NCBI GenBank assembly: GCA_017431625.1 | Contig: JAFRKQ010000021.1 | Span: forward strand, 13,324-77,323 | DNA length: 64,000 nucleotides | DNA from: a bacterium | Lineage (GTDB): Bacteria; Patescibacteriota; Microgenomatia; UBA1400; PJMF01 | Direction: 5' to 3' | In this document: piece after piece, positions 477-42,224 of the stretch | Position numbering within the stretch: position 1 is the first letter of the stretch | Layout of the letters: each line of letters starts with the position of its first letter | Notes under the pieces: model-generated | The model's database searches: none | What the model was told of the DNA's origin: nothing | The model's input: only the letters and a program-made list of their open reading frames with translations | Position numbers and translations under genes: made by a program

Positions 477-505
477 TTGTCAAGAACGAGTTTTTGCGCT
501 ACAAT
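477..505 (+). promoter_or_regulatory. Sigma70-like promoter TTGTCA-N17-TACAAT feeding a near-leaderless ATG at 513
   Basis: TTGTCA at 477-482 and TACAAT at 500-505, with the start codon 7 nt downstream. Confidence 0.5.
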
Positions 506-512
506 AGAGTCA

Positions 513-1691
513 ATGAAAAAATGTGTATTGGTTATTGCTGGTCTTTTGGCGTTTTTGGGAGTGGGTCGTGTTGCGGCAGGCGGACTAGAAACCCAAATTT
601 ATAGCGATAATCACGCCTATTCTACGGCTAGCAGCCCACAAACTTCCACCTTGCGTATTGCCATGCGCCCCTCAGCCAGCGTCCCCAACTCGGCGATTGA
701 AGTCTACTTGTACGCGATTGCCCCCACGGCGACGGCGAGCGATGGCGTGGCCGACTTTAATGCTTTTGACATTGGCAATATCGAGGTTGAGTGTCCCCAG
801 TCAATTCCAGGAGTTTTTGATTTTGGCACCCCCGAAATTATTCCAGCCGAGCGTAGTCATATTCACCTCAACGATGGCGATTATCACCGGATTATTTGCC
901 CCTACGCCGGCACGGGTGACGTCTCGCAAGCAGACTTTGGTTATGACAATGATAATTATTTGATCATCAAAAATTTGCTCAATCCTCGCCACGATCCCAG
1001 CCTGCCCAACTCACAATTGATTTATTCACCGATTTGGATTAATTTTTCGGCCGCCGTTGCCCAGCTGACGATCACCTCAGCACGCAATGTCCGTGTCCTG
1101 GCGACAATCATGCCTCAAATCAGCCTCACGATTGAAGGAGTGCCGGAAGGGCAAACTTATTGCGGGCAAAAAACCAAAAAAACCACCACCGGCAAGGTCG
1201 CCGATTTTGGCCAAGTCGACAATGAATATTTTGCTGATATTGCCCAAAAACTCACCGCTACTACCAATATGATCAATGGTTATGTCATTACCGCCCGCCA
1301 GGACGACCAGATGCGCATGGTAGACGCCCCCATGATGAAAGGGGAAGCAGTAGTCTGCACCGGACATGGTGACACCAATGATATTTGTATCAGTGATGCC
1401 AATCCCGGAGGTATTAGTGCCACCAAGGCAGTACCTTGGAATGATTCTTTGCGCACGCACGGCATGGGTTTTACCTTGGAAAATGAATTTGGCGGTGACA
1501 GTCTTTTTTCTTACAAAGATGGTTACCGGATTTTTGCCGACCAACAAAATGGTGACGAACCCGTAAGTATTATCAAAGGCGATGGCCATCGAGGTGTTGA
1601 CTACGTTTGCTATCGGCTGACGGCTTCCGACGACAATTTACCTGGCTTTTACGCCAACAAAATCACCTACGTACTCACTGCTAAATTCTAG
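513..1691 (+). CDS. Hypothetical secreted protein (N-terminal signal peptide MKKCVLVIAGLLAFLGVGRVAAG)
   Basis: Long ORF. Hydrophobic signal-like N-terminus follows the internal ATG at 513. No recognisable catalytic motifs. Confidence 0.6.
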   Translation: MKKCVLVIAGLLAFLGVGRVAAGGLETQIYSDNHAYSTASSPQTSTLRIAMRPSASVPNSAIEVYLYAIAPTATASDGVADFNAFDIGNIEVECPQSIPGVFDFGTPEIIPAERSHIHLNDGDYHRIICPYAGTGDVSQADFGYDNDNYLIIKNLLNPRHDPSLPNSQLIYSPIWINFSAAVAQLTITSARNVRVLATIMPQISLTIEGVPEGQTYCGQKTKKTTTGKVADFGQVDNEYFADIAQKLTATTNMINGYVITARQDDQMRMVDAPMMKGEAVVCTGHGDTNDICISDANPGGISATKAVPWNDSLRTHGMGFTLENEFGGDSLFSYKDGYRIFADQQNGDEPVSIIKGDGHRGVDYVCYRLTASDDNLPGFYANKITYVLTAKF

Positions 1692-1756
1692 GTTCCCCGA
1701 TAGCGTCATCTACTATTATAATAGTAGTATCTTTATGCTGAAAAATTGGCTGATTA

Positions 1757-3157
1757 TTAATTGCTCTGTTGCCGGACACAGGACTCAAGTTGAGCAAAAG
1801 TCTTGAGTGTGAGTTTTTGGTCACGCCGCCGCAGCCCGCGCACCAGCTCACCCAGCGATCGAGCCTGATCGAGTGTGGTAATTGAGGTTAAAATATCATG
1901 CAATTCTTGATCGGTTAGCTCACGAGCGTCTTGGATCCACGCCAGATCTTCATGCCAATTGGCAAAACCAGCCGTATCCACACACCGATAAAAACGCATA
2001 AGGTAATCACGGACTAGGACGATGTCAGTGCGCTTGACCAGTTCATTGAGCAAATTGGTAGTTGGCAGATCTTGACTAAAATAAGTGAGCTTGAAATCCA
2101 AATCATCGCGAGTACGCACGGGAAATAGCTGCACTTCTTGACTAGCATAAATAATCCCTGAGCGCACTTTTTGCAGTAGTGAGTAATACTCACCGGTGGG
2201 ATAATGGATATAATTGTAGGCGTACAAATGAAAACCATTAGGCGAGAGTGTTCGCGTTTGCGGCACGTCCCAAGTCTGCATCGCCCCCAAAATAGCGGCT
2301 TCTGGGGTAGGAAATTCATGATCAAGCAGCCGGCGCATGTGTACCAAAGGCAGATTGGCACAGCGAATGGTACCAAACTCCATGTGTGAGACCGCCAAAC
2401 CTATCAGTGATTCCACCGACACTTGACCAATAAGCGCAGGCTCACGAAACATTGCCTGCAGCCACTGAGTTCGTTCTTGATCCAAGTCATTTAATTGAGA
2501 TAAAGTTTCGCGACTCACTGAAGGGGGAAATTCATAGCCAGCCCAGGCCGCGGGCAAGCCCGATGCTTGTGCCTGTTGAGTCTGGGTAATCAGTTCGTGA
2601 GCTTGTCCCAAAAGCTGGCGCAAGCGGCGCAAACGAGTCAGATTGTGATTAAGCGGCGCGCGTTTGTTGTCACTCGCTGTGTCCAGCTCACTTTCGGCCT
2701 GACTACCCACCTGTGACCAGATAGCTGGATTTTGCCCCACCTCGGCGGCTTGCCAAAAAAGTTCAATGCACGTGCGTGCTGGCACCAAATGCCACTCCAA
2801 GTCAGCCCCACCCAAAATCCGCCACGCACCAGCCAACAAGCTCGCCCAATTGCTAGTGCGGTGGGTTTTGAATTCGCGAAAAAGCTGACTTACCAGCGTG
2901 GGATCCAGGGTATCGATCAGTTCATAAAAAAGTTGCTCTACCTGCTGGTAATCGCTTTCTGGTAAATCTGGTTGCTCACGCCGGTAAGCCTCAGCAAAAC
3001 GGCCAAAACTCCCACGAAAACTCTCATCACGTTCACCAACCAACTGCTTCAAAGCTGGAGCTAAATCTTGCTCGCCAACAGCCGAAACAGATGGACTTTC
3101 AGCCACAGCTGAAGGTTCTAAATCAACTGGCGGTAGTGTGGGCACTGATTGAGGCAT
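1757..3157 (-). CDS. Hypothetical protein (466 aa, GC-rich)
   Basis: Long uninterrupted ORF with coding-like composition (~55% GC). No family recognised. Confidence 0.6.
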   Translation of the reverse strand: MPQSVPTLPPVDLEPSAVAESPSVSAVGEQDLAPALKQLVGERDESFRGSFGRFAEAYRREQPDLPESDYQQVEQLFYELIDTLDPTLVSQLFREFKTHRTSNWASLLAGAWRILGGADLEWHLVPARTCIELFWQAAEVGQNPAIWSQVGSQAESELDTASDNKRAPLNHNLTRLRRLRQLLGQAHELITQTQQAQASGLPAAWAGYEFPPSVSRETLSQLNDLDQERTQWLQAMFREPALIGQVSVESLIGLAVSHMEFGTIRCANLPLVHMRRLLDHEFPTPEAAILGAMQTWDVPQTRTLSPNGFHLYAYNYIHYPTGEYYSLLQKVRSGIIYASQEVQLFPVRTRDDLDFKLTYFSQDLPTTNLLNELVKRTDIVLVRDYLMRFYRCVDTAGFANWHEDLAWIQDARELTDQELHDILTSITTLDQARSLGELVRGLRRRDQKLTLKTFAQLESCVRQQSN

Positions 3158-3159
3158 AA

Positions 3160-3507
3160 CTAAAACCTCAGGCTACTCAGACACAAAATCCCGACCACCG
3201 AGACGAGATTGTTGAAGGTGGACAATTCCAGGGCCTGATGAAAATCATCACAAATACTCCAGCGAAAAAACCACGCTTCCAGCAAAATAATCGCTGTCTG
3301 AGTGGCTAGCAGCATCGCCAGCCACCACTCCAGACCTCGACGACTCACCAAACTCATGACGACCACAAAAAGCGGATTGGTCAGAAGATTACCCACCAAA
3401 ACCACCAGTTGTTCGCGCCAGGTGTGTTTGTCCAGCAGCCAGCTTGTTCCCGCCTCAAACACAATCGTTAGTAATAAACTTTTCACTAGATTTATCAGCG
3501 CGAACAT
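3160..3507 (-). CDS. Small hydrophobic membrane protein
   Basis: ORF 3160..3570. Probable start at MFALINLV (compl. 3505-3507). 3-4 predicted TM helices. Sits immediately upstream of the 466-aa ORF on the same strand. Confidence 0.45.
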   Translation of the reverse strand: MFALINLVKSLLLTIVFEAGTSWLLDKHTWREQLVVLVGNLLTNPLFVVVMSLVSRRGLEWWLAMLLATQTAIILLEAWFFRWSICDDFHQALELSTFNNLVSVVGILCLSSLRF

Positions 3508-3584
3508 AGACTCTTTCTGTTTGCACCAACTATTATAGCATACATCAGTCGTATTGTGACAGGGAATCATGAAATATTTAGCTA

Positions 3585-3613
3585 TTGTATTTACCCTGAG
3601 TTTATGGTATAAT
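3585..3613 (+). promoter_or_regulatory. Promoter for tRNA-Cys (TTGTAT-N17-TGGTATAAT)
   Basis: Extended -10 TGGTATAAT at 3605-3613, 12 nt before the mature tRNA 5' end. Confidence 0.5.
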
Positions 3614-3625
3614 CAATCTCAAGAT

Positions 3626-3699
3626 GTCGCGGTACCAGAGTGGTCCAATGGCCGGGTCTGCAAAACCTTGGTTCGCGGGTTCGAATCCCGCCCGTGACT
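3626..3699 (+). tRNA. tRNA-Cys (anticodon GCA)
   Basis: Hand-folded. Acceptor stem GTCGCGG/CCGTGAC (7 bp including one G-U). T-arm GCGGG-TTCGAAT-CCCGC. Anticodon loop CTGCAAA with U33 and A37. No encoded CCA. The D-arm is short (3 bp). Confidence 0.75.
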
Positions 3700-3799
3700 C
3701 ACTAGTAAAATATTGTTGATGCAAGGGAATAATATTAGTAATTGAGGAAATTTTGTGAACAAAAACAAAACTAACCGCGATCCGCTCCATTCACAAAAA

Positions 3800-3814
3800 A
3801 GCACTAATAGTGCT
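3800..3814. repeat. Perfect palindrome AGCACTAATAGTGCT upstream of the (GA)n tract
   Basis: agcact/agtgct inverted repeat seen directly. Confidence 0.6.
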
Positions 3815-3837
3815 CTTGGTGTAGTTTCGGAACTCTC

Positions 3838-3858
3838 GAGAGAGAGAGAGAGAGAGAG
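3838..3858. repeat. (GA)10 dinucleotide microsatellite, 25 nt upstream of the large glycosyltransferase ORF
   Basis: gagagagagagagagagagag flanked by tcgag on both sides. Confidence 0.95.
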
Positions 3859-3882
3859 TCGAGAACACGAAGTAGTACGTGT

Positions 3883-6800
3883 TTGTTATCACAATTCGAT
3901 TTGAATCTGGATAAGCCAGTAGCAGAAGGTGAGAGGCAAGACCAGAGCGAAAGTATCCAGACTGTTTATAACGATGGAAAAGTTGAAAAGCAGATTCTTG
4001 ACTGTTTGTTCCGAGGTGATGCTCCCGCGACAATAGAAGACAATACTGGGGTAGTGTTTCATAATTTTACGAATGCCCGGGAAAATTTACTCAATTGGTA
4101 TCCATTTAATAAGAATGCTGAGATTCTAGAGGTCGGTGCGGGTATGGGTGGCCTAACCGGTTTATTATGTGATCGGGTAGCTCATGTAACTGCTTTAGAG
4201 AACGCTCCACAGCGTGCTGATATTATTAGGATGCGTTATGCAGAAAAGAAAAATTTAACAGTAATTACTGGCAATTTGGCAGATATTGATAAAAATAGCA
4301 AGTTTGATTATATTTTGGTAGTAGGAGTACTTGAATACGTAGACATTGGAAAATCGTCCGGCAGACAAGCACATTTGGATTTTCTATCTCAAGTGAAACT
4401 CATGTTAAAACCAGGAGGGATTTTGTTGCTGGCAATCGAAAATAGATTTGGTTTGAAGTACTGGTGCGGTGCGGCTGAAGATCACATTGGCAAGCCTTTT
4501 GTTGGTATTGAAGGTTATAAAGATAGTTATACAACTAGATATCAATCGCGAGGTGTAACAACTTTTGACAAGCAATCATTAGCTGATTTATGCAAAGAAG
4601 TGGGTTTGGTTTATCAGCGTTGGTATTACCCTCTTGCTGATTATAAATTTCCCACAGCGATCTTTAGTGATGACAAATTACCTAGTTTAAGTGATATTGC
4701 CAGAATTAAGTTCACTTACCCTCAAGAGTCGACACTGATAGCCGATGAGAGAGAACTTTACCGTGAAATAATTAGTAATGATGTATTTCCTTTTTTTGCC
4801 AATTCTTTTTTATTAGAGACATCGACAACTGATTTACCCAGCGATAATGTAATGTGTGCATTCTTAAAGCGTGATTATGCTGCTCAATATCGGCTAGCCA
4901 CTATTTTCATGCGCGATACGGTAGAAAAAGTGGCTTTGAATGGCAAGGCTAAAAATCATTTAAACGAATTAATTAACAATACCAATGCGATTAAAAAAAG
5001 AGGCGTGCCAATTTTGGAAGGAAAATTATTAGATGAGCGCTGGATATTGAAAAAAATATCAATGCCTTTAGCAAATAAAAAAATGGCAGAATGGCTGGAG
5101 CGAGGAGATTTAGCGTCAATTAAAGATTTGTGTGAAAAGTTGGAGACATATTTAAAGAAGTCTTCGCCCTTTTTCAGTGCCAAAAATGTCTACAACTGTG
5201 AACTTGGAGATTTTGTCTTTGACCAGGAAGAAGTGATTTTAGAAGACGGTTATATTGACTTGACCTTTAATAATAGTTTTTATCAAGATAGCGATTTATT
5301 ATTCTTTGATCAGGAGTGGCGTTTAAAAAATGTACCTTTGAAATTTATTCTCTATCGTGCTTTGCTTTATGCTTTTAAAGATAATAGCTTTTTAAGCTTT
5401 GACAAACTTCTAGCGACCGTCAAAATTAATGAAACCATGACACAACAGTTTGCCCGAGCAGAAAAAATAATGTTGTCTTCAATTATGGATGATGAGATGG
5501 TAAAAAGATTCGACAGCGATATGTACCATGAAGGATTAACGTTGAATTATCAAAGAAAACAAGAGTTATCCAACAAACAGGCTCACATTGAAACATTGCT
5601 TGAATCTGAACGCAGTTTAAATCAAATAATTGACAATCAAAAAAAACAATTGACTGATCAAAGCGTGACAATTGACAACCAACATGGTCATATCGAGCAG
5701 CTTCTCGAAAAAGAACGTGCTTGGGAACGAGAGAAAAATTCTAAAGCCTATCAGCTAGCAATGAAGTTTAGTGCCACCTCACAATTTTTCTTGCCAGAAA
5801 AAAGTCGGCGGCGATTTTTATTCAAGGCAGCCAATAAAGTGATTAATGATCCCAGTTTACTACCGAAAGCTTTGGACCCACAACGTTGGCGAGATTACTT
5901 AAGTTTAATGAATAATGGTGAATTTGCGCAAGCAGAAAAGCAACTCGATCAAGCAGCTGTCAATCAGCGAAATGCTAATATCGCTTTAGATGTTTCAAAG
6001 TATGACATTACTCTAGTGACGCCAGAATTGCAACCGATAGGTGTCTACAGACACTTAACGTTCCCGCAAGTCTCTCAGCCTCTAGTTTCGATCATTATCC
6101 CAGTTTATAATCAGTTCAATTACACCTATTATTGTTTGGCATCAATTTTGAAACATACTCAAGACATTGATTATGAGGTAATTATTGCCGATGATTGTTC
6201 GACTGACCTGACTACAGAGATCGCGCAGCTGATAGACAATATAAAGATTGTGAGGACACCCCACAATCTGCGCTTTTTACGTAACTGTAATTATGCGGCC
6301 AAAACAGCACGCGGCAAGTATATATTATTTCTCAATAACGACACCCAGGTACAAGAAAAGTGGTTATCATCACTTTTGGATTTGATTGAAAATGATAAAA
6401 CTATTGGTATGGTGGGATCTAAATTGATTTATCCAGATGGCCGTTTGCAAGAAGCCGGCGGGCTTGTTTGGAATGACGCCAGCGCTTGGAATTACGGCCA
6501 AGGTCAAAATCCAGAGTTACCAGAGTTTAATTACGTGAAAGAATGTGATTATATTTCTGGGGCGGCGATCATGATCAGACATTCCTTGTGGGATGAAATT
6601 GGTGGATTTGATGAGAGATTCGCACCGGCATACTGCGAGGATTCTGATTTAGCTTTTAGCGTCCGTCAACATGGTTTCAAAGTTGTTTTTCAGCCATTAT
6701 CAATAGTGGTACATTTTGAAGGTGTCTCAAATGGCACCGATCTGAGTAGTGGTCAAAAAAAATATCAGGTAGAAAATACGAAAAAGTTTTATCAAAAGTG

Positions 6801-7995
6801 GCAAAAAATATTGCGTGCCGATCAATTTGCCAATGCACAGAATGTTTTCTTGGCTTGCGATCGGAGTCGATATCGACAGCACGTTTTATTTGTGGATCAT
6901 TACGTGCCAATGTATGATCAAGATGCTGGCAGCAAAACGACGTATGCGTACATAAAAATGCTAGCGCAAAAAGGTTTTGCGGTAACTTTTTTAGGTGATA
7001 ACTTTTACCGGCACGAACCATATACGACCGCTCTACAGCAATTAGGCGTACGCGTACTTTACGGCACCCAGGTTGCTAATAATTTAGAGTCTTGGTTTGT
7101 CCATAATGGCAAATATTTTGACATCTTTTATTTAAATCGACCTCATATATCTGTTAAATATTTAGATTTAATCAGAAATTATTCTTCTGGCAAAGTTATT
7201 TATTATGGTCATGATTTACACTTCTTGCGCACTAGACGAGAATATGAGCTCTCTGGTGATGAAAAAAAACTGACGGAAGCGATGGAATGGCAGGAAAAAG
7301 AGCTATCTATTATGCGACGTACTGACATGAATTATTATCCGTCGAGTGTAGAAGTTCAAGAAATTGCCAAGCTGGATCCACAAATACCGGTAAAGGCAAT
7401 TAGCGCCTATATTTTTTCGGCCGCATCAAAAGTCGATTACCAAGCAGCAAAGACCGATGGGATTTTGTTTGTTGGCGGTTTTGCACACGGGCCCAATCTT
7501 GACGCTGTCAAATGGTTTGTGACAAAAATATATCCAGAAATCTATCACCAGACTCATGCTCCTTTTTATATTGTTGGCTCTAAAGCTCCTGAAGAGATTA
7601 AAAGCATTGATGTACCAGGAGTGATTTGTAAAGGTTTTGTAAGCGAAAAAGAGCTTGAGGAGTTATACCAAAGTTGTCGTCTTAGTGTCGCTCCACTGCG
7701 ATACGGAGCAGGTATCAAAGGAAAAGTAATTGAAGCTTTTTATCATGGTAGTCCAATGGTGACAACATCAGTGGGTATTGAAGGAATAGACGGGGCAAGT
7801 GATTTTGTTTGCGTACGCGATCAAGCGATTGATTTTTCCGAAGCCGTGATCAAACTATATCATAATACAGAAAAATTAAACCGCATTTCCAATTTGTCTA
7901 AGCAGTATGTAGAAAATCACTTTAGTGAAAAATCTGCCTGGGAGATAATTAATGATGATTTTGGCAATGCAAACCAAAAAGAAAGATCCAAATGA
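3883..7995 (+). CDS. Multidomain glycan-synthesis enzyme: class I SAM-methyltransferase, coiled coil, GT2 glycosyltransferase, GT4/GT1-type glycosyltransferase (1370 aa)
   Basis: Motif I ILEVGAGMGGLTGLL (MTase). Heptad-like Q/E/K-rich segment at about aa 550-620. GT2 core VSIIIPVYNQ...DYEVIIADDCSTD...CED. C-terminal GT4-like EX7E region EAFYHGSPMVTTSVGIEG. First in-frame start is TTG at 3883 (no upstream ATG), so the start is uncertain. Very AT-rich. Confidence 0.8.
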   Translation: MLSQFDLNLDKPVAEGERQDQSESIQTVYNDGKVEKQILDCLFRGDAPATIEDNTGVVFHNFTNARENLLNWYPFNKNAEILEVGAGMGGLTGLLCDRVAHVTALENAPQRADIIRMRYAEKKNLTVITGNLADIDKNSKFDYILVVGVLEYVDIGKSSGRQAHLDFLSQVKLMLKPGGILLLAIENRFGLKYWCGAAEDHIGKPFVGIEGYKDSYTTRYQSRGVTTFDKQSLADLCKEVGLVYQRWYYPLADYKFPTAIFSDDKLPSLSDIARIKFTYPQESTLIADERELYREIISNDVFPFFANSFLLETSTTDLPSDNVMCAFLKRDYAAQYRLATIFMRDTVEKVALNGKAKNHLNELINNTNAIKKRGVPILEGKLLDERWILKKISMPLANKKMAEWLERGDLASIKDLCEKLETYLKKSSPFFSAKNVYNCELGDFVFDQEEVILEDGYIDLTFNNSFYQDSDLLFFDQEWRLKNVPLKFILYRALLYAFKDNSFLSFDKLLATVKINETMTQQFARAEKIMLSSIMDDEMVKRFDSDMYHEGLTLNYQRKQELSNKQAHIETLLESERSLNQIIDNQKKQLTDQSVTIDNQHGHIEQLLEKERAWEREKNSKAYQLAMKFSATSQFFLPEKSRRRFLFKAANKVINDPSLLPKALDPQRWRDYLSLMNNGEFAQAEKQLDQAAVNQRNANIALDVSKYDITLVTPELQPIGVYRHLTFPQVSQPLVSIIIPVYNQFNYTYYCLASILKHTQDIDYEVIIADDCSTDLTTEIAQLIDNIKIVRTPHNLRFLRNCNYAAKTARGKYILFLNNDTQVQEKWLSSLLDLIENDKTIGMVGSKLIYPDGRLQEAGGLVWNDASAWNYGQGQNPELPEFNYVKECDYISGAAIMIRHSLWDEIGGFDERFAPAYCEDSDLAFSVRQHGFKVVFQPLSIVVHFEGVSNGTDLSSGQKKYQVENTKKFYQKWQKILRADQFANAQNVFLACDRSRYRQHVLFVDHYVPMYDQDAGSKTTYAYIKMLAQKGFAVTFLGDNFYRHEPYTTALQQLGVRVLYGTQVANNLESWFVHNGKYFDIFYLNRPHISVKYLDLIRNYSSGKVIYYGHDLHFLRTRREYELSGDEKKLTEAMEWQEKELSIMRRTDMNYYPSSVEVQEIAKLDPQIPVKAISAYIFSAASKVDYQAAKTDGILFVGGFAHGPNLDAVKWFVTKIYPEIYHQTHAPFYIVGSKAPEEIKSIDVPGVICKGFVSEKELEELYQSCRLSVAPLRYGAGIKGKVIEAFYHGSPMVTTSVGIEGIDGASDFVCVRDQAIDFSEAVIKLYHNTEKLNRISNLSKQYVENHFSEKSAWEIINDDFGNANQKERSK

Positions 7996-8999
7996 TTATT
8001 ACGCAAACTCCATTTCGGATGTCTTTTTTTGGCGGTGGAACTGACTTTCCCGAATTTTTTCGTGAGCATGGTGGCAGCGTAATATCGTCTACTTTTGATA
8101 AGTATGCATATGTAAACGTCCGCCATTTGCCGCCATTTTTTGATTATACTAGTGAAATATCTTATTCAAAACTAGAACGGGTAAAAAGTGTTAATGAGAT
8201 TGAGCATCCGGCAGTGCGTGAAACCATGAAATATCTAGATATGCATGATTTGCGTATCTCATATGAAGCTGATTTACCAGCACGTTCCGGCTTGGGGACA
8301 AGTAGCTCTTTTGTCGTGGGGATGTTACATGCTTTCTATGCGCTTAAAGGCAAATACGCAAGCAAAAAGCATTTAGCTGACGACGCAATTTATTTAGAAA
8401 GAGAACTGTGCAAAGAGACAGGCGGTATCCAAGACCAAATTGCTGTCAGTTTTGGCGGTTTTAACAGAATTAATTTTGATGTTAAAGGTTACAGTGTCAA
8501 TCCCATTATTATTTCTCCTAGTCGTTTGCAGCAGCTAAATGATTCCTTACTACTTTATTTCACTGGTTTTTCTCGTATTTCTGCTGATATTCAAGTGCAG
8601 ACACAAAAAAATCTCAAAAATAATACGAATACATTACTAGAAATGCTAGAATTAGTGGATGAAGCCGAAAAAATTCTTACTAGCAAAACGAATTTAGATG
8701 AATTTGGACGGCTGCTTGATTATACTTGGAAATTAAAACGCGGTTTGACGGATAAGGTTTCTACTGGTTGCATAGATGATATTTACGCTGAGGCACTCAA
8801 AGCCGGCGCTTTGGGAGGCAAACTCTTGGGAGCTGGCGGTGGTGGCTTCTTACTCTTTTATGTTGCACCAGAAAAGCATGCTCAAGTAAAAGAATGTTTG
8901 TCGCGTTTATTGTATGTGCCTTTTTGTTTTGAAACTGGTGGCACACGTGTTATTCACTACACGCCAGAAATTTATGATGATCGTGGAGAGGATAAGTAA
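7992..8999 (+). CDS. hddA: GHMP-family sugar kinase, D-glycero-D-manno-heptose 7-phosphate kinase (HddA-like)
   Basis: GHMP motif PARSGLGTSSSFVVGML. The N-terminus (MSFFGGGTDFPEFF) fits HddA. ATGA overlap with the upstream stop. Confidence 0.75.
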   Translation: MIITQTPFRMSFFGGGTDFPEFFREHGGSVISSTFDKYAYVNVRHLPPFFDYTSEISYSKLERVKSVNEIEHPAVRETMKYLDMHDLRISYEADLPARSGLGTSSSFVVGMLHAFYALKGKYASKKHLADDAIYLERELCKETGGIQDQIAVSFGGFNRINFDVKGYSVNPIIISPSRLQQLNDSLLLYFTGFSRISADIQVQTQKNLKNNTNTLLEMLELVDEAEKILTSKTNLDEFGRLLDYTWKLKRGLTDKVSTGCIDDIYAEALKAGALGGKLLGAGGGGFLLFYVAPEKHAQVKECLSRLLYVPFCFETGGTRVIHYTPEIYDDRGEDK

Positions 9000-10279
9000 T
9001 GAAAAAACCTCCTGCAGTAATCATGGCTGGTGGCAAAGGAACACGAATCGCAGCGATAAACGCAACTGTGCCTAAACCAATGATAGAGATTGCTGACAAA
9101 CCAATCTTGCAATATGAGTTGGAAGTGCTGTCGCGACAAGGCTATCGTGATGTTACTATTGTTACGGGACATCTCGGCCATGCAATCCAAGAATATTTTG
9201 GTGACGGCAGCAGTTTTGATTTGCAAATTAACTATCTGCACGAAAAAGAACCTTTAGGCACAGCGGGTGCGCTTTATTGGTTAAAAGGTAAAGTCTCTAC
9301 CGATTTCTTGTTGCTTAATGCGGATATTATTTTTGATGTCGATCTGGATCGTTTTTACCGTTATCACCAAGCACAAAAAACGACAGCGACGATTTTGACC
9401 CATCCTAACGCTCATCCCTATGACAGTGCAATTATTGCTGCAGACAAAAATAACATTGCAACTGCTTGGTTACATAAAGAAGACACACGACTCTGGTATC
9501 GCAACCGCGTCAATGCTGGGTTGCACTTTTTATCGCCTTCTGTTTTCGCGAGCTATAAAACTCTAGAAAAAAAAGACTTGGATCGAGATATTCTCAAACC
9601 ATTAATTGAAACCCACCAACTAAGTGTCTATGACTCTCCAGAATACGTCAAAGATATGGGTACGCCTGATCGCTATGAAAATGTAATCAAAGATCTACGC
9701 GATGGCTTAGTAGCAGCAAGAAATCTCAATCGGCGACAAAAAGCAATCTTTTTGGATCGTGACGGCACTTTAAATAAAGATGCTGGCTTTTTGACAAATA
9801 TTGACCAGCTGGAATTAATTCCTGGAGCGAGCGAAGCAGTAAAGTTAATTAATGATAGCGGTTACTTAGCAATTGTCGTCACCAATCAACCAGCAATAGC
9901 GCGTGGAGAATTAACTATTGCACAGTTGGATTTGATTCATCAAAAATTGGAAACTTTATTGGGGCAAGATGGCGCTTATCTTGACGCTATTTATTATTGC
10001 CCACATCATCCAGATAAAGGTTTTTCTGGAGAACGACCAGAATATAAAATTGAGTGTGAGTGTCGCAAACCAAAGCCAGGAATGCTGCTGCAAGCAGCTA
10101 GACATTTTAATATTGATTTGTCATCATCTTGGATGATTGGTGATAGTATTAAAGATATTGAAGCCGGAAAGGCAGTCAATTGTTACACTGCACTTTTGAG
10201 TAAAGAGCAAGCGAATATACAGCCAGATTTGTCGGCACGCGATTTATTGTCAGCAGTCAAAAAGATATTGGACAAATAG
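8999..10279 (+). CDS. Bifunctional heptose-1-phosphate nucleotidyltransferase (HddC-like) fused to D,D-heptose 1,7-bisphosphate phosphatase (GmhB, HAD family)
   Basis: N-terminal MAGGKGTRIA...GTAGALY nucleotidyltransferase. C-terminal AIFLDRDGTLN (HAD motif I) plus the Zn-finger signature CPHHPD...CECRKPKPGML typical of GmhB. Confidence 0.8.
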   Translation: MKKPPAVIMAGGKGTRIAAINATVPKPMIEIADKPILQYELEVLSRQGYRDVTIVTGHLGHAIQEYFGDGSSFDLQINYLHEKEPLGTAGALYWLKGKVSTDFLLLNADIIFDVDLDRFYRYHQAQKTTATILTHPNAHPYDSAIIAADKNNIATAWLHKEDTRLWYRNRVNAGLHFLSPSVFASYKTLEKKDLDRDILKPLIETHQLSVYDSPEYVKDMGTPDRYENVIKDLRDGLVAARNLNRRQKAIFLDRDGTLNKDAGFLTNIDQLELIPGASEAVKLINDSGYLAIVVTNQPAIARGELTIAQLDLIHQKLETLLGQDGAYLDAIYYCPHHPDKGFSGERPEYKIECECRKPKPGMLLQAARHFNIDLSSSWMIGDSIKDIEAGKAVNCYTALLSKEQANIQPDLSARDLLSAVKKILDK

Positions 10280-10282
10280 AAT

Positions 10283-10924
10283 ATGTCACAAAATAAATAT
10301 TTAGCTGAATTACTTATAAGATATCCGAGATTAGCGGCTTGCGAAAACAGTGTTTACCAAACATATCAAATGTTACTAGATAGTTTTGCCAATCAACATA
10401 AACTTCTTGTAGCTGGCAATGGGGGAAGTTGCGCTGACGCAGAGCATTTAGTGGGTGAATTGATGAAAGGCTTTTGTTTACCGCGACTTTTAGATGAACA
10501 ACAAAAGCAGAAGTTAATAAGCATTGATGATGAAATCGGTAAAACTTTAGGTAAAAAATTACAAGGTGCTCTTCCCACTCTCGCACTAACAAATCACAAT
10601 GCATTAAATACAGCTTATCTTAATGATGTTGATGGACTTTATATTTACGCGCAACAGGTTTACGGCTACGGCCAAGTTGGCGACGTCTTTTTGGGGATTA
10701 GCACTTCAGGCAATTCTAAAAACATCCTTAATGCAGCCGTAACGGCAAAAGCAAAACAGCTAAAAGTGATTGGTTTAACGGGGGAAAATGGTGGTAGATT
10801 AAAAGATTATTGTGATGTCTGTATCTGTGTGCCAGAAACGGAAACATTTAAAGTCCAAGAATTGCATTTGCCAGTTTATCATTGTTTAGCATTGATGTTG
10901 GAAGAGAAGTTTTTTGGAAAGTGA
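10283..10924 (+). CDS. gmhA: Sedoheptulose-7-phosphate isomerase (SIS domain)
   Basis: LVAGNGGSCADAEHLVGEL, ISTSGNS and QELHL motifs match the GmhA consensus. Confidence 0.85.
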   Translation: MSQNKYLAELLIRYPRLAACENSVYQTYQMLLDSFANQHKLLVAGNGGSCADAEHLVGELMKGFCLPRLLDEQQKQKLISIDDEIGKTLGKKLQGALPTLALTNHNALNTAYLNDVDGLYIYAQQVYGYGQVGDVFLGISTSGNSKNILNAAVTAKAKQLKVIGLTGENGGRLKDYCDVCICVPETETFKVQELHLPVYHCLALMLEEKFFGK

Positions 10925-10962
10925 TATGAAAAACCGAACGCTATGTACTCCAGGATCATAAT

Positions 10963-13809
10963 ATGCTAACACTTAAAAAGTTTTATTTGACACATTTTCT
11001 TAACAAAAAACAGATACGAGATTTGCTGGAATTCTTATCAGTTATACTTGCCATTAATATCCTAATAATTATCGGCGTGAAAAATGGGCTTTTTTTTCTA
11101 GAAAGTGGTGTACTCTATCGAGACGTCCCTGTTTATAAGTTTGCCGATAGTCTCAAAAGTGGCGACGATAGCGTAGAACAAGAGTTTATTCCTAAGATGC
11201 CAGGGCTTACGAGAATTGATATCAGATTGGCCTATGCAGGTAATATTGAGGATGATCATGCACAAGCACTTTTAACTTTAAGCGACGATGAGGGGAATAT
11301 TTTATCTGAACATATTGTTACTGGAGATAATTTTGAAAACTGGCGCTATTTTAGTATAGACGCTAGGGGCTTGCAATGTGGACACAAGTATGTCATCAAA
11401 ATGCAACAACAATCACAGAATTTGACTCCAGACGGCGATTTTGCAACTTCGTGGGCTCCTTTTGTTTATGAAGCCGATGAAATCCTATCCAAGGATAAAA
11501 CTTTTCCTCAAGAGAATCTCACTAGTTATTATAATCATGCAGTACGTAATTACCATTGGGACATTCATTATGTCTATGGAAGAACAGTTTATCTATATAT
11601 GCTTTTTATTGATATAATAGTGTTTAGCGTGTATATACTGGGGTCTATTTTTTTAAAACACATGGCTCTGCAAAAAAAGAAACAATGTTTAAATTCAGAT
11701 ATAAAAACGATCACAAATGCCATTTTGATTAGCAATTGCTTAGTGGCTAGTTATTTAATTTATGTTGTTTATGTTTGGTTTCTTGAGTTAGTAGATTTTG
11801 TTTGCTATTTTTTTCAGTGGCCGCAAGCGACACCAATTTCTCGCATTATGGTGGCTTCTTTTACTATGTTACTAGTCTTTTTCTGCAAAAGAAAGAAAGC
11901 GTTTATCGTGGGAAGGTTGTCCTTTAATTGGAAATTATTGCTGGCCATTGTATTTTTTATCCTGCTGAGTGCGACCAAAATTGTGTATCCAGATACTAGT
12001 GCGGATACCTTTAATTATCATTTATTGGCACAGCAGCCGGGATTTGTAAACTATTTTAAACAAGGTTTTGGCGCAGGGGGATTTCAGGTGTGGGGTTTCC
12101 GCCTTGGAGATCGTTTATATTATCCATTTCGAGTGTTGCTGGGGTATAGGTTGGGGACTGTTTTAAATACCATAGTTGTCATAATCATCTACTTACAACT
12201 AGTTCTTATTATGCAAACATTTACTAAGGACAATGTGCGAAAGTTCTGTTTGTCTCCTGAAATGTTTGCTTTACTTTTACTGGCCACGCAGTGGGACACT
12301 CTATTAATGATGGGCATATACTATGTGGATATTTTATCTATCCCTTTAATTTTGGAAGCATTTAGAATACTTGCTTCTCATGAAAATGAGAAAATAAATA
12401 CAACTAAAATAATTTACTTGTCTTTTCTACTGGGGTTTGCTTTTGCCTTCAAAATGACGAATATTGCATTTGTGTTACCATTGGGAATGGTTTTATTGGT
12501 AAAATCTTGGAAAAAAATTACGCCCGTTAGCTTTATTGTCGCCGGTCTTGCTTGTGTTTTACCGGTTAGTATTTATTTAATATTTAATTTTGTTTGTACA
12601 CGTAATCCAGTTTTCCCTTATTATAACAAGATTTTCCGATCTCCATATTTTAAGATCGCAAATTTTAAAGATAATAGATGGGGCGGGAGTGACACCAAGC
12701 AACAACTACTCTGGTTTTATCATATCGTAAAGCACCCAGAAAGCCGCGTTTCGGAAATTAATAATCCTAACACTACATTCATACTATTTTCACTATTTGC
12801 GTTCATTTTGCTACTTTCTTTGGTTGTATATTATCACTGGAGGAAGCGTTATACTTACAAATCATTCTTCACGTATATTGGCATGATTATATTTTCATAT
12901 TTGATTTGGACATTTTCAACTGGTTATCCGCGCTACTATATTGGCGGTTTTATATTATGGGGATTGGCAATTTATTTATGCCTTTATTTATTTTCCCAAA
13001 AAAATTTACTTGTAACTAATGTACTTAGTGTTATGTTCATTGTTGTTTCATTGCTAATTGCCAAAGACGAGGCGTGGACAGTTGTTGTCGCCGGTCATGA
13101 ATGGTCATGGCGTCAATTCTCTATGGCCACATACAAGATACAATTACCATTGATATTCCATGACAAAATATGGTATTTGCCTGATAATCAAGAATTTCCT
13201 GATAAATTTATTTTGACTGAGGCAACCACGGGGGACGTCGTTTTAGCTAACCCGCGGGCTTCTATCATAGCCTTATATTATCAACGTTGGCTGGATAATC
13301 AGGAAACTATAAACGATCTTCACAATAAAGCAAAACAAGCATTAAATTCGAGAGGATATATCATTTTAAGAAGTGCTAAGAATCTAAAAGCGATTATTGA
13401 CGAACTAAATAAGTATAGTTTATACTTAAATGATATACAGATGATATATACCAATCAGGCTCAGCGTTATTTAGGATTGGTAGAAAGACTTATGGATGCA
13501 ACCAACTCAGGCGAATTAGTTACAGATGATTTTCATACTACATTAAATATTAAACCAAACCGCAATAATGTAAATTTTATATATGTATGTATTACATCCA
13601 ATGAAGGAGGAAATTGCGATTATCATGTCACTCTATCTCAAGATAATGCAGTAGTTTATGAAGAAAATATTAATATAGGAAAAGATCAAACTGGAAAATT
13701 AGATATGAATATATCTGAAGAAGTGTCACCAGACACCCTAGACGTTTCTATTATGAACAATCGAGCTAATAGCTCTGGCAGTCAATTGGCAATCATCAAC
13801 TTGCACTAA
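10963..13809 (+). CDS. Large polytopic membrane protein (948 aa, >12 predicted TM helices plus a C-terminal soluble domain). Possible GT-C-type glycosyltransferase, oligosaccharyltransferase or polymerase
   Basis: ATG at 10963. Long hydrophobic helices throughout aa 200-700, then a hydrophilic ~250-aa C-terminal domain. AT-rich. No catalytic motif recognised, so the functional call is by context. Confidence 0.6.
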   Translation: MLTLKKFYLTHFLNKKQIRDLLEFLSVILAINILIIIGVKNGLFFLESGVLYRDVPVYKFADSLKSGDDSVEQEFIPKMPGLTRIDIRLAYAGNIEDDHAQALLTLSDDEGNILSEHIVTGDNFENWRYFSIDARGLQCGHKYVIKMQQQSQNLTPDGDFATSWAPFVYEADEILSKDKTFPQENLTSYYNHAVRNYHWDIHYVYGRTVYLYMLFIDIIVFSVYILGSIFLKHMALQKKKQCLNSDIKTITNAILISNCLVASYLIYVVYVWFLELVDFVCYFFQWPQATPISRIMVASFTMLLVFFCKRKKAFIVGRLSFNWKLLLAIVFFILLSATKIVYPDTSADTFNYHLLAQQPGFVNYFKQGFGAGGFQVWGFRLGDRLYYPFRVLLGYRLGTVLNTIVVIIIYLQLVLIMQTFTKDNVRKFCLSPEMFALLLLATQWDTLLMMGIYYVDILSIPLILEAFRILASHENEKINTTKIIYLSFLLGFAFAFKMTNIAFVLPLGMVLLVKSWKKITPVSFIVAGLACVLPVSIYLIFNFVCTRNPVFPYYNKIFRSPYFKIANFKDNRWGGSDTKQQLLWFYHIVKHPESRVSEINNPNTTFILFSLFAFILLLSLVVYYHWRKRYTYKSFFTYIGMIIFSYLIWTFSTGYPRYYIGGFILWGLAIYLCLYLFSQKNLLVTNVLSVMFIVVSLLIAKDEAWTVVVAGHEWSWRQFSMATYKIQLPLIFHDKIWYLPDNQEFPDKFILTEATTGDVVLANPRASIIALYYQRWLDNQETINDLHNKAKQALNSRGYIILRSAKNLKAIIDELNKYSLYLNDIQMIYTNQAQRYLGLVERLMDATNSGELVTDDFHTTLNIKPNRNNVNFIYVCITSNEGGNCDYHVTLSQDNAVVYEENINIGKDQTGKLDMNISEEVSPDTLDVSIMNNRANSSGSQLAIINLH

Positions 13810-14005
13810 GTAATTAAATCAACTAAAGATGTTCTGATTGTCCAGATAATGTAGGTTAAGTAAAATTTCGTGCAGGTTTTACTCTTGCAAAATATGAATT
13901 ATGTTATTATGCAAAACAGCAACCATCTTGTCCAAATTCAAATACTCACAAACTAACAGATAGATTAACAAATGGATTAACAAATATAAACACACTTCAT
14001 AGCTA

Positions 14006-14236
14006 TCACCGTTTTATTCTTTCAGTATAATTCTTAATGATGTCTTTTCCTCTTAATTCACATGATTGAATTAACATTTCTATCTTACTGGGTTCATCAA
14101 GATTGTTTAGATTTAATTCATCATATAAGTGTTTCACATTTTCTTTTAGTTTTTCTAATAGTTCTGGAGTCATAACTCTGATTGCTGAATTTGAAGCCTC
14201 CACGGCAGCCAGCAGTGGTGCTGTCGTAATCCCCAA
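14006..14236 (-). CDS. Small hypothetical helical protein (55-76 aa) in an AT-rich spacer
   Basis: ATG-initiated ORF with amphipathic-helix-like sequence (MTPELLEKLKENVKHLYDEL...). It overlaps an antisense ORF (14103..14477) whose first half looks non-coding. Confidence 0.3.
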   Translation of the reverse strand: MGITTAPLLAAVEASNSAIRVMTPELLEKLKENVKHLYDELNLNNLDEPSKIEMLIQSCELRGKDIIKNYTERIKR

Positions 14237-14481
14237 ACTTTTTTACCGAGGCTATATTGCTCGCGATGAAAGTCACAATACTTTCCCTATCGTCAATGGT
14301 GACAATAATTGTGCCGCCGTCCTGTTACCGGCCAACTATCATGGTATTATCACTGTAGAATACCAAAAAAGAAAAATCTGGATTTTGGGCGAATGGATAT
14401 CCGTCATCACTTTGTGTGTACTCATCAGCATCGCCGTTATCACATACTGCAACCAGCGACGCACACAAACATCATAAATTA

Positions 14482-14521
14482 CTGCCACTCCCCGCCATTT
14501 CTGGCAAAAATTCGCACTAAA
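14482..14521. repeat. R1 repeat, copy 1 (CTGCCACTCCCCGCCATTTCTGGCAAAAATTCGCACTAAA)
   Basis: About 88% identical 40-nt copy at 15809-15848. Copy 1 overlaps the -35 region of the downstream ATPase gene (TATAAT at 14536-14541). Confidence 0.8.
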
Positions 14522-14548
14522 TTGTTCATTTCCATGTTATAATAAGTT

Positions 14549-15799
14549 ATGCTCGAAATCAAACGTGACTACTATCTGCGCCAACTGATCGCCCAGCGTG
14601 GCTCTAGTTTCATCAAAATCATTACTGGCTTGCGCCGTGCCGGCAAATCCTACTTGCTCGATCCAATTTTTCGCCAATTCTTACTTCAAGATGGCGTCGC
14701 GCCGGATCATATCATTCACCTCAATTTGGAAGAGTTTGAAAACCGCTGCTTGCTTGACCCCTCCGCATTATTCACTTTTGTCAAAAAACAAATCGCCGAT
14801 AGTCAAACTTATTACGTGCTCCTCGATGAAATCCAACTTGTGCCCGGTTTCGAGTCCATTCTCTCCAGTTTTCTCCACCTAGACAATCTCGACGTTTACG
14901 TGACTGGCAGTAACTCACGTTTCTTGTCTTCAGACGTCATCACTCAATTTCGCGGCCGTGGCACCCAAATTCACCTGTATCCACTCAGCTTTGGCGAAAT
15001 TTATGCCGCCTTAGGCGGTGATAAATACGAGCTCTGGGAGCGTTATTACCGTTACGGTGGCTTGCCGCAAGTGGTCCAGCAGCCCGATGACCAAGCCCGG
15101 ATCTCCTTTTTAGAAGCACAAAAAGACAATGTTTATCTCAATGACTTAATAGAACGTTATCGTATCCGCAATAGTGACAGTCTGGGTATCCTCAGTAGTG
15201 TCATCGCTTCAGACGTGGGTGCGCTCACCAACCCCCACAAACTCGAGCGCACCTTCAAAAGCAAAATTGGTGTCGACCTAAGCTACCACAAAATCGAGGA
15301 TTATTTAGAAAAACTCCAAAACGCTTTTTTAATCGAAAAATCTAAACGTTTTGACGTCAAAGGCAAACGTTATATTGATACTCCGGTAAAATACTACTTT
15401 ACTGATCCCGGCATTCGCAACGCTTTCGTTGATTTCCGCCAAACAGAAGAATCTCATCTGATGGAAAATATTATCTATAATGAACTCCGCCGCCGCGGAT
15501 TCAAAGTCGATGTCGGCACGGTCGAAACCAGAGGGGAAAATGGCACTCGCCAACAATTAGAGGTGGATTTTGTCGCGAGAAAGGCCGATAATACATATTA
15601 TATTCAATCAGCCCTCACGATCGGTGATAGTGCCAAAAGATACCAAGAATCACGCTCGCTAGATCACATTAATGATCACTTCAGCAAGATCATCATCGCC
15701 AAAGATACTTTTGCTCCCGGCCACGAGCGCAACGGCATTGCTACCATCGGTCTTTTTGGCTTTTTACTCGATGACAAAATCCTAGATAAATATCAATAG
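14549..15799 (+). CDS. AAA+ ATPase of the COG1373 / AAA_14 + DUF4143 family (paralog 1)
   Basis: Walker A GLRRAGKSYLL. Walker B YVLLDEIQ. The length and C-terminal half are consistent with DUF4143-type proteins. ATG at 14549 with TTATAAT 7 nt upstream. Confidence 0.7.
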   Translation: MLEIKRDYYLRQLIAQRGSSFIKIITGLRRAGKSYLLDPIFRQFLLQDGVAPDHIIHLNLEEFENRCLLDPSALFTFVKKQIADSQTYYVLLDEIQLVPGFESILSSFLHLDNLDVYVTGSNSRFLSSDVITQFRGRGTQIHLYPLSFGEIYAALGGDKYELWERYYRYGGLPQVVQQPDDQARISFLEAQKDNVYLNDLIERYRIRNSDSLGILSSVIASDVGALTNPHKLERTFKSKIGVDLSYHKIEDYLEKLQNAFLIEKSKRFDVKGKRYIDTPVKYYFTDPGIRNAFVDFRQTEESHLMENIIYNELRRRGFKVDVGTVETRGENGTRQQLEVDFVARKADNTYYIQSALTIGDSAKRYQESRSLDHINDHFSKIIIAKDTFAPGHERNGIATIGLFGFLLDDKILDKYQ

Positions 15800-15808
15800 T
15801 GTCACTCT

Positions 15809-15848
15809 ACTGCCAATTTCCGCCATTTTTGGCAAAAATTCGCACTAA
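15809..15848. repeat. R1 repeat, copy 2
   Basis: Direct repeat of 14482-14521, beginning 10 nt after the stop of ATPase paralog 1. Confidence 0.8.
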
Positions 15849-16049
15849 ACCAACCAGAAATAATCTAAACAGGTTCAAACACATTTCGGAATAAAAATTT
15901 GGGTTAAGTAAAAAAAACGTGGAGGTTTTTTGCATGGCTTTTAGCGGTGTATACGTAAAATTGGCATTATTTTGCACTTTTTGAGTGCTAAAATACACCA
16001 ATTGCGACCAAGAAGTAGGCAACACCAAATCTGTGTTGCACTCCCACTT

Positions 16050-16140
16050 AACCCCACATTTCGTGAAAAAACAGCCAAAATTAACTTTACATTTCGTGAT
16101 ATTTTGCCAAAAATTAAGCTTACATTTCGTGAAAAAACAC
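16050..16140. repeat. R2 array A: three tandem 33-bp units with core TTACATTTCGTGA, immediately upstream of a TTGACA -35 element
   Basis: ACATTTCGTG at 16056, 16089 and 16122 (period exactly 33 bp). Inter-core sequence is semi-conserved (GCCAAAAATTAA). TTGACA at 16141. Confidence 0.85.
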
Positions 16141-16192
16141 TTGACAATTATTCTAATAGTGATCTAATCACTAAGAAAGGTTGAAAACTATT

Positions 16193-17545
16193 ATGAAAAG
16201 GCTTATCTACGATCAGCTGCTTGAGTGGAAAAACACTGATCAAGGTCGGCACGCTGTATTAATTGAAGGCGCGCGACGTGTTGGCAAAAGTTACATTACC
16301 AATGATTTTGGCAATGACAATTACGCTTCTTACCTCACAATCGACTTTTCGGCCACTACCGATGAAATCCGTGATCTTTTTTATAACTATCTTGATCACC
16401 TTGACGATTTTTTTCACCTGCTGACCAATTATTATCAAGTTAAACTTTTTCATCGCCAGTCACTGATTATTTTTGATGAAGTTCAACATTTTCCTCGTGC
16501 CCGCGAGGCCATAAAGCGCCTTGTTGCTGACGGACGCTATGATTACATCGAAACTGGCTCCTTGATTTCCATCAAACAAAACGTCAAAGACATCCTCATA
16601 CCGTCTGAAGAAAGAAAACTAACTATGAGGCCCATGAATTTTCAAGAATTTTGCTTGGCGACCAATAATCAAATGCTTTGGGAATATATCTGCGATTGTT
16701 TCGCACAAAAAAAATCTCTGACACCACCAATGCATCGACGTGCCATGAATGTTTTTCGCCAATACCTAATTGTTGGTGGCCTGCCTCAAGCAGTAGCTGC
16801 TTTTATTAAATCTCAAGATTATACCCTAGTAGACCACGAAAAAAGAGCTATTCTTGATCTTTATCGCAATGATATTAGCAAATTTAGCGATTCAATTCGT
16901 TTTAAGGTAGAAAAAATTTTTGACGATATTCCCTCTCAACTTCAGCGACATGAAAAAAAATTTAATTTGGCCGACATTGATTACAATGCTCGCTTGCGAG
17001 AATATGACGATGCCTTTTATTGGTTGCTTGATGCAGGTTTGATCAATATTGCTTATAATACCACCGAACCAAATTTGGGTCTCAATCTTGCAAAAGATGA
17101 CCGGTATTTCAAGTGTTATCTGTTTGATACAGGTTTACTTTTAGCTATGACTTTTAATGAAAAAGAAATTGCCCGCGAAGAAATATACAAAAAGATTCTT
17201 TTCAACAAACTCGAATTTAACCAAGGCATGATTATGGAAAACCTTATCGCCCAAATGTTACGCTCAAGCGGACATCATCTTTTCTTTTATGTCAAACATG
17301 ATCGTGGTGATAATAATGAAAACATGGAGGTTGATTTTCTTTTGTCTAAAAATGTTATCACCAATAAGCACAATATTATCCCGATCGAGGTCAAAACTGG
17401 TGTTAGATACACTTACAAATCACTGCGCAAATTCTCTCAAAAATATCAGCAATTTGTCACCAAACCAATTATTATTCACCAAAATGATTTGCAAATTGAC
17501 AATGGCATTCTCTATTTGCCCGCTTACATGGCCGAGTTGCTTTAA
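16193..17545 (+). CDS. AAA+ ATPase of the COG1373 / AAA_14 + DUF4143 family (paralog 2)
   Basis: Walker A GARRVGKSYIT. Walker B IIFDEVQ. SD-like AAGAAAGG 12 nt before the ATG at 16193. The ORF track starts at TTG 16181. Confidence 0.7.
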   Translation: MKRLIYDQLLEWKNTDQGRHAVLIEGARRVGKSYITNDFGNDNYASYLTIDFSATTDEIRDLFYNYLDHLDDFFHLLTNYYQVKLFHRQSLIIFDEVQHFPRAREAIKRLVADGRYDYIETGSLISIKQNVKDILIPSEERKLTMRPMNFQEFCLATNNQMLWEYICDCFAQKKSLTPPMHRRAMNVFRQYLIVGGLPQAVAAFIKSQDYTLVDHEKRAILDLYRNDISKFSDSIRFKVEKIFDDIPSQLQRHEKKFNLADIDYNARLREYDDAFYWLLDAGLINIAYNTTEPNLGLNLAKDDRYFKCYLFDTGLLLAMTFNEKEIAREEIYKKILFNKLEFNQGMIMENLIAQMLRSSGHHLFFYVKHDRGDNNENMEVDFLLSKNVITNKHNIIPIEVKTGVRYTYKSLRKFSQKYQQFVTKPIIIHQNDLQIDNGILYLPAYMAELL

Positions 17546-17554
17546 TTGATCACT

Positions 17555-17650
17555 AACTCTACATTTCGTGAAAAAACAGCCAAAATTAACTTTACATTTC
17601 GTGTGAATTTACTCAAAATTAATCTTGCATTTAGTGAGAAATACTGTAGT
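17555..17650. repeat. R2 array B: three tandem 33-bp units (ACATTTCGTG x2, GCATTTAGTG), direct orientation relative to array A
   Basis: Cores at 17561, 17594 and 17627. Begins 16 nt after the ATPase-2 stop. The first 50 nt are nearly identical to array A. Confidence 0.85.
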
Positions 17651-17799
17651 TTTAAGACATCAAGTCAGCGACTGATAATTTTCACCAATATGCCAAATTG
17701 TCCAGCAGTCAACCGAATTGAGTTTCCGCTAGCTATTCCCAAACTTTGGCAAATTCGCCATTAATTTGGAATTGACTTTAGTGACAAAATTAACTTTGG

Positions 17800-18395: not shown

Positions 18396-18404
18396 AAACG
18401 ATCT

Positions 18405-42219: not shown

Positions 42220-42224
42220 ATTTC

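Follow-up and report, generated by a model that had tools for sequence, protein, structure and literature searches.

A perfect (GA)10 microsatellite lies at the head of a glycan-synthesis operon in the 64-kb stretch of DNA that was analyzed here (hereafter, the window), and it is likely, in our view, to be an intragenic slipped-strand switch that operates at the level of translation and not on a promoter. In the proposed mechanism, ribosomes would start at a GTG codon at position 3755 and read the GA tract as (Arg-Glu)n. When the number of units, n, is a multiple of 3 (9 was observed, and 6 and 12 were obtained in silico), the leader would be in frame with the glycosyltransferase ORF, and a 1412-aa enzyme would be made (ON). 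At n = 10, the length in the window, the leader would stop at TGA 3902, and at n = 11 it would stop at TAG 3873, both lengths being OFF with respect to GTG 3755; in these OFF phases, the enzyme would be absent or would be made weakly by re-initiation at TTG 3901 or TTG 3883, which lack a Shine–Dalgarno (SD) sequence. Gain or loss of a GA unit during replication, presumably by slippage and presumably reversible, would turn the leading gene of a putative heptose-containing surface-glycan operon on or off. The switch would sit in a Patescibacteria-like bacterium, in which the operon was apparently acquired horizontally next to a tRNA-Cys gene.

The tract, (GA)10G at positions 3838-3858 of the + strand, was delimited by TRF (period 2, 10.5 copies, 100% matches) and by repeat scans. 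Positions 3836-3863 read TC-(GA)10-G-TCGAG; of the two copies of TCGAG, that at 3836-3840 runs into the first GA unit, and the other lies at 3859-3863. The wider context is ...AAAAAAGCACTAATAGTGCTCTTGGTGTAGTTTCGGAACTC-TC(GA)10G-TCGAGAACACGAAGTAGTACGTGT-TTG..., in which 24 nt separate the end of the tract from TTG 3883. The first-pass annotation of this DNA had described a pure GA tract with TCGAG on both sides, and this description is confirmed. The length of the tract is far beyond chance: it is the sole long microsatellite in the window, where the runner-up dinucleotide run has 4 units, and in first-order Markov simulations (n = 100) the longest dinucleotide runs were 4-6 units and never more than 6. 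Perfect dinucleotide microsatellites become hypermutable at approximately 6 or more units, and the (GA)10 tract, which is 100% pure, is longer than this threshold.

GTG 3755 is the sole start in the region with a good SD sequence, as judged with a generic anti-SD. An SD-like GAGGAA occupies 3744-3749 (+ strand), and its GAGG core (3744-3747) ends 7 nt before the GTG; the duplex with the generic anti-SD amounts to -5.6 kcal/mol at correct spacing, and the corresponding values are -5.9 kcal/mol for dnaK and -6.4 kcal/mol for hddC/gmhB. The large ORF, in frame 1, is open from 3811, and its first canonical starts are TTG 3883 (-3.0 kcal/mol, from pairing at a site too far upstream) and TTG 3901 (+0.3 kcal/mol, no pairing). 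TTG 3883 had been regarded in the first-pass annotation as the only possible start of the gene, which was wrong: GTG 3755 with its SD is one alternative, and TTG 3901, at which NCBI starts MBQ6449889.1 ("glycosyltransferase," 1364 aa), is another. GTG 3755 opens frame 2 and crosses the GA tract. The leader frame in the (GA)10 phase (3755-3904, + strand) has the GTG start, 49 codons, and the stop TGA 3902-3904, and its predicted peptides include MNKNKTNRDPLHSQK and SRERERESR, the tract being read as Ser-(Arg-Glu)3-Ser. Because the NCBI start TTG 3901 overlaps the leader stop as TTGA, a gene with a frameshift looks intact in the public annotation.

When one GA unit was removed in silico, the GTG 3755 frame joined the large ORF to give an uninterrupted 1412-aa product, in which the tract forms codons 29-35; the fused ORF stands first in the glycan operon. 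In an in-silico series of tract lengths from n = 5 to n = 14, the full-length protein from GTG 3755 was obtained with n = 6, 9, and 12, whereas n = 7, 10, and 13 led to the stop at TGA 3902, and n = 5, 8, 11, and 14 led to the stop at TAG 3873-3875 (+ strand). The leader product from GTG 3755 is 49 aa at n = 10 and 40 aa at n = 11, and both out-of-phase frames terminate 5-15 codons past the tract. An SD-led ORF of at least 20 codons that is open into the tract was found in ~4% of random 137-nt upstream segments. The tract thus lies within a presumably translated frame, and a change of one unit shifts the frame of the gene. We leave translation of the leader as an inference because the leader has no homologue and none of the enzyme's homologues has such an N-terminal extension in the alignment. 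The 49-aa peptide had no relative among 1.84 billion representatives and was not present in a 15-billion-protein collection, and the leader region showed no similarity to the Wzt C-termini of homologous loci.

The same frames could also be read as a three-state device, in which translational coupling lets the tract set the expression level and the N-terminus of the enzyme instead of turning it on or off. All tract lengths would then give some enzyme, with terminating ribosomes re-initiating at TTG 3901 when n = 10 and at TTG 3883 when n = 11. The overlap of TGA 3902 with TTG 3901, the position of TAG 3873 only 7 nt before TTG 3883, the NCBI start at TTG 3901, and an extension that is dispensable, judging by the homologues, are all in keeping with this idea. 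However, a TTG without an SD is a poor re-initiation site, and a TTGA overlap is expected by chance at ~1 per 16 stop codons, so the restart geometry may be fortuitous. We consider a graded output of this kind unlikely and favor a switch between ON and OFF phases at the level of translation. If translation started at TTG 3883 or TTG 3901 independently of the leader, the length of the tract would matter less.

Both a frameshifted and an in-frame allele of this gene exist in public assemblies. Four proteins make up the cluster of the NCBI protein at 90% identity; among them, P0123 is 1412 aa long, starts at GTG 3755 (MNKNKTNRDPLHSQKSTNSALGVVSELSRERERESRTRSST...), and is identical residue by residue to the predicted fusion. 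P0123 is encoded by L001 (ENA ERZ28654653, XIEF21-1_SAMN15829913 scaffold_21336, 5216 nt), a contig from an independent assembly; it carries (GA)9 and corresponds to window positions 3268-8485. The alignment has 0 mismatches, and its only gap, of 2 nt, falls in the GA tract. The window, which represents the MAG behind MBQ6449889.1 and was used as the reference, carries (GA)10, and so does L002 (ENA ERZ28019060 k141_764337, 7400 nt), which differs from the window by 7 substitutions. Tract length thus differs among near-identical genomes in a sample of three assemblies, with two alleles read at the level of assembly consensus, and the OFF length (GA)10 is present in two of the three, the MAG included. 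This is the kind of length heterogeneity that the first-pass annotation had proposed to look for, and the evidence for it is direct but thin.

Positions 1-20 of L002 are Illumina adapter (ACACGACGCTCTTCCGATCT). Of its 7 differences from the window (within 2812-7010), five are A>C or T>G changes, and stop codons result from two; in view of the adapter and of this bias, we treated the stop-creating differences as probable assembly noise. The split of the gene at residue 309 in L002 (P0121) is accordingly probably an assembly artefact, and the nonsense codons, standing on a contig with an adapter and error-like substitutions, were not counted as a sign of pseudogenization. L001 and the other ENA contigs of the organism are short (~5 kb), which suggests low coverage, and a consensus error in one assembly is therefore possible. 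Exact-pattern scans with a variable gap revealed no further copy of the locus in JGI metagenome contigs or GTDB genome contigs, protein-guided scans of JGI metagenomes and GTDB species representatives returned distant relatives only (30-44% identity), and no contigs encoding NCBI protein P0001 are on record.

The main ORF (3883-7995, + strand) comprises, according to Pfam, NCBIfam, and its homologues, a class-I SAM methyltransferase, a middle region, a GT2 domain, and a GT4 domain (Glyco_trans_1_4). It is 1370 aa long from TTG 3883, 1364 aa from TTG 3901, and 1412 aa from GTG 3755 at n = 9, and its sequence matches in the PDB were to generic GT2 domains only. The genes on its 3' side, with overlapping or closely spaced starts, are annotated by Pfam and NCBIfam as an HddA-like GHMP kinase (7992-8999), an HddC-like nucleotidyltransferase fused to a GmhB phosphatase (8999-10279), and a GmhA-like SIS isomerase (10283-10924), all on the + strand. 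All four domain types of the nucleotide-activated D-glycero-D-manno-heptose pathway (GmhA, HddA, GmhB, and HddC) are present by best NCBIfam match; the GmhB subfamily model scored 151.4 bits, above its curated cut-off of 149.6, and HddA, HddC, and GmhA scored below theirs. Positions 7992-10924 thus appear to hold three genes of a nucleotide-heptose pathway, in which the HddA, HddC, and GmhA assignments stay at "-like." The last gene of the operon (10963-13809, + strand) encodes a 948-aa polytopic membrane protein (~12 hydrophobic segments) that matched neither Pfam nor NCBIfam and could be a membrane glycosyltransferase or polymerase. The glycan is presumably located at the surface, and a frameshift in the first gene may be polar on the heptose genes.

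The closest homologues of the large protein (41-53% identity) come from gut-type metagenomes, and the few named ones are from Clostridium botulinum and Oscillibacter. In an N-terminal alignment, 60 homologues begin 5-9 residues before a conserved (V)YSDG motif, and at the three loci whose DNA was read (L011-L013), ordinary SD sequences and ATG or GTG starts are found near the motif, with no SSR. The window gene has no start codon at the homologues' start position, and this copy consequently depends on an upstream start. The gene order at L011-L013 is wzm, wzt (with a Wzt_C domain), the methyltransferase-glycosyltransferase (MTase-GT) gene, and a GHMP kinase gene, wzm and wzt lying directly 5' of the MTase-GT gene (L011, 3607-5801; L012, 4806-7006; L013, 5788-7982). 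Only L013 remains intact beyond this point, and there NTP-transferase/HAD and SIS genes follow, and then a large protein of 722 aa with a weak DUF8201 match, which takes the position of the 948-aa ORF of the window. By analogy with the WbdD/Wzt and WsaE systems, we take this layout to be an ABC-transporter-dependent glycan pathway with a terminal cap.

In the window, wzm and wzt with a Wzt_C domain do not adjoin the MTase-GT gene; the tRNA-Cys gene stands in front of it instead. When the window was searched by tblastn with the three Wzt proteins, the one match was a generic ABC ATPase gene (41323-42003), which shares 27-29% identity with Wzt residues 27-238 and has no Wzt_C part. A TTTTG/ACA-rich repeat of ~22 nt in 3 copies (42213-42278) separates the ABC ATPase/FtsX-MacB permease genes from an HlyD-like gene, and a histidine kinase gene (43602-44798) lies just beyond. 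Genes for Wzm and Wzt could be located elsewhere in the genome; as they are missing near the window gene, the pathway could also be incomplete. Since the window copy has no wzm and wzt in front of it and begins after a tRNA gene, the operon seems to be 5'-truncated relative to its relatives.

The GC content at 4-14 kb, extending to ~19 kb, is 33-42%, compared with 45-50% in the flanks, and this low-GC block (4000-19000), between tRNA-Cys and dnaK, looks like a horizontally acquired island by its composition. A duplicated tRNA-Cys 3' end that could serve as the att site of an island was not found within the window. Two adjacent AAA_14/DUF4143 ATPase genes (14549-17545) lie inside the block, with a 33-nt tandem repeat of 2.8 copies (16048-16139) just upstream of the second one. 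We infer that a 5'-truncated, horizontally acquired operon gained a new, repeat-bearing translation start. The host is placed by DnaK and CysS, for which the named matches (76-80% and 52-55% identity, respectively) are mostly Candidatus Pacebacteria, Patescibacteria group, and Woesebacteria, with a few labeled otherwise (Pseudomonadales bacterium, Vitreimonas sp.); on these two proteins, its nearest affiliation would be Patescibacteria/CPR-like. Two loci with 92-93% DnaK identity (L009 and L010) share synteny with the window on the dnaK-secDF side only, and beyond dnaK they have a DNA methylase gene instead of the low-GC block. They were uninformative as a guide to the ancestral tRNA-Cys locus.

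It is quite improbable, in our judgment, that no switch exists and that the two tract lengths arose from assembly error or PCR stutter, or from a single frameshift in a horizontally acquired gene that is decaying. Such an explanation would agree with the few assemblies and their probably low coverage, with the adapter and the A>C/T>G-biased, partly stop-creating differences of L002, with the missing wzm and wzt beside the operon, and with the absence of the locus from the JGI metagenome and GTDB species-representative collections. However, the 5216 nt of L001 are otherwise identical to the window, the lone difference being at the SSR, and neutral persistence of a perfect 10-unit tract would be unexpected, as runs elsewhere in the 64 kb have at most 4 units. 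In addition, the 4.1-kb ORF is otherwise intact in the window, and so are the four genes downstream of it.

The tRNA-Cys (GCA) gene lies at 3626-3700 (+ strand; ARAGORN and Rfam tRNA, 52.7 bits), and its likely promoter, read by eye, is TTGTAT-17 nt-TGG-TATAAT at 3585-3613 (+ strand; TTGTAT-17-TGGTATAAT), which the consensus scan missed, as its -35 hexamer agrees with the consensus at just 3/6 positions. No terminator-like site was found on the + strand at 3700-3755, and this promoter is a candidate for read-through into the leader and the glycosyltransferase gene, which would then be cotranscribed with the tRNA. Neither Pfam nor NCBIfam gave a match for three ORFs upstream of the tRNA (477-3570; 404, 466, and 136 aa), of which the 136-aa ORF has three hydrophobic segments. 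The palindrome AGCACTAATAGTGCT (15 nt, 3800-3814, no strand), to which the first-pass annotation had drawn attention, is indeed a perfect 7+1+7 palindrome and codes S-T-N-S-A of the leader. Its occurrence is at chance level, with 8 perfect 7+1+7 palindromes in the window against 5.1 ± 2.5 expected from simulations, and it is probably fortuitous. RNA folding of the 230-nt region was not better than that of shuffles (z = -0.88), and the tRNA was the single element found by an Rfam scan of the region; a role of the palindrome as an operator or hairpin was accordingly dropped.

The first-pass annotation had taken the tract for a phase-variation switch that might itself lie in a -35/-10 spacer. The hypermutable type of the tract, its variable length, and its place at the head of a surface-glycan gene support the first part of this proposal. 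The promoter mechanism is not supported: no -35/-10-like hexamer pair spanning 3838-3858 was found in a promoter scan, and the tract lies inside the GTG 3755 ORF. Although SSRs in promoters and 5'-UTRs drive phase variation elsewhere, e.g., in Haemophilus influenzae (PMC12721329), and the tract does lie upstream of TTG 3883, it is very unlikely that the gene starts at this TTG and that tract length alters transcription through a spacer or mRNA processing, as sigma-70-like hexamers across the tract are absent, 21 nt exceeds any 16-18-nt spacer (a promoter-spacer switch was rejected on these two grounds), TTG 3883 has no usable SD, the tract carries neither a significant RNA structure nor an Rfam element, and a natural one-unit change that restores an SD-led long ORF would be a coincidence (~4%).

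The translational slipped-strand switch can be joined to the history of the locus in a broader reading, which we hold to be improbable as a whole: this would be the first documented SSR contingency locus of the CPR/Patescibacteria, formed by a leader grafted on a truncated operon and working as a three-state device. An orphan, repeat-bearing leader ORF would have replaced the ancestral start codon of a horizontally acquired glycan operon. The enzyme would be fused at n = 9, and the leader would end at one TTG restart at n = 10 and 7 nt before a different one at n = 11. The expression level and the N-terminus would then both be set by the length of the tract, which is more than a simple on/off choice.

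CPR/Patescibacteria are ultra-small, mostly uncultured bacteria that are thought to be attached to other microbes, and their surface glycans are therefore likely contact points with hosts and phages. If the GA tract is a working ON/OFF switch, the number of GA units in reads would be a countable marker of surface variation in metagenomes, and the locus would show how a newly formed leader can place a horizontally acquired operon under stochastic control.

In E. coli O9a (WbdD/WbdA) and Geobacillus stearothermophilus (WsaE), chain-terminating methyltransferases and polymerizing glycosyltransferases act in ABC-transporter-dependent pathways. The window gene resembles them in the fusion of a methyltransferase to glycosyltransferase domains, but no sequence-level match to these proteins was obtained, and wzm and wzt are missing next to the window gene.

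Intragenic SSR contingency is a known type of switch. For Patescibacteria, the candidate phyla radiation, and Saccharibacteria, we found no report of SSR phase variation in the literature; an in-frame hypervariable 9-mer repeat described in Gracilibacteria is a different phenomenon (PMC6851277). SSR switches in promoters or 5'-UTRs are known from Haemophilus influenzae (PMC12721329) and from the porA and nadA promoters of N. meningitidis (PMC3639595, PMC2791445). Like these, the window locus has its microsatellite 5' of the annotated start of a surface-related gene; unlike them, it lacks promoter geometry and has its tract in a presumably translated frame.

Functionally, the locus resembles surface-glycan genes with SSR contingency loci in their 5' coding regions, which are described in reviews and studies of Haemophilus, Neisseria, Campylobacter, and Helicobacter (PMC11868660, PMC2651432, PMC8437040, PMC3315296). 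The SSR-switched genes of Campylobacter modify capsule and lipooligosaccharide (PMC8437040), and N-terminal enrichment of SSRs has been taken as a signature of phase variation (PMC3315296). As at those loci, frameshifting by a microsatellite that lies close to the N-terminus would switch a glycosyltransferase or capsule-modification gene. Their repeats, however, are mostly homopolymers or tetranucleotides in cultured, host-adapted Proteobacteria and Campylobacterota, whereas the present repeat is a dinucleotide in an uncultured, Patescibacteria-like genome.

The nearest documented analogue is found in the Type III mod genes of Mycoplasma, which carry an intragenic (AG)n, e.g., MmyCI of M. mycoides subsp. 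capri (PMC3498834). In that mod gene, (AG)12 truncates the product, (AG)10 restores it, and stops occur in both alternative frames just past the tract (PMC3498834). The two systems have in common an AG/GA unit, ~10-12 units inside a coding region, one length class in frame with the two others soon meeting stops, and ON and OFF alleles that occur as variants, natural or clonal for mod and in public assemblies here. They differ in that the mod tract, conserved across species, starts at nucleotide 320 of a gene for a restriction-modification methyltransferase, whereas the present tract lies at codons 29-35, in an orphan leader on a glycan-synthesis gene, and is absent from the homologues. Notable features of the present locus are the lineage of its host, the apparently grafted orphan leader, and ON and OFF alleles that can already be seen in public assemblies.
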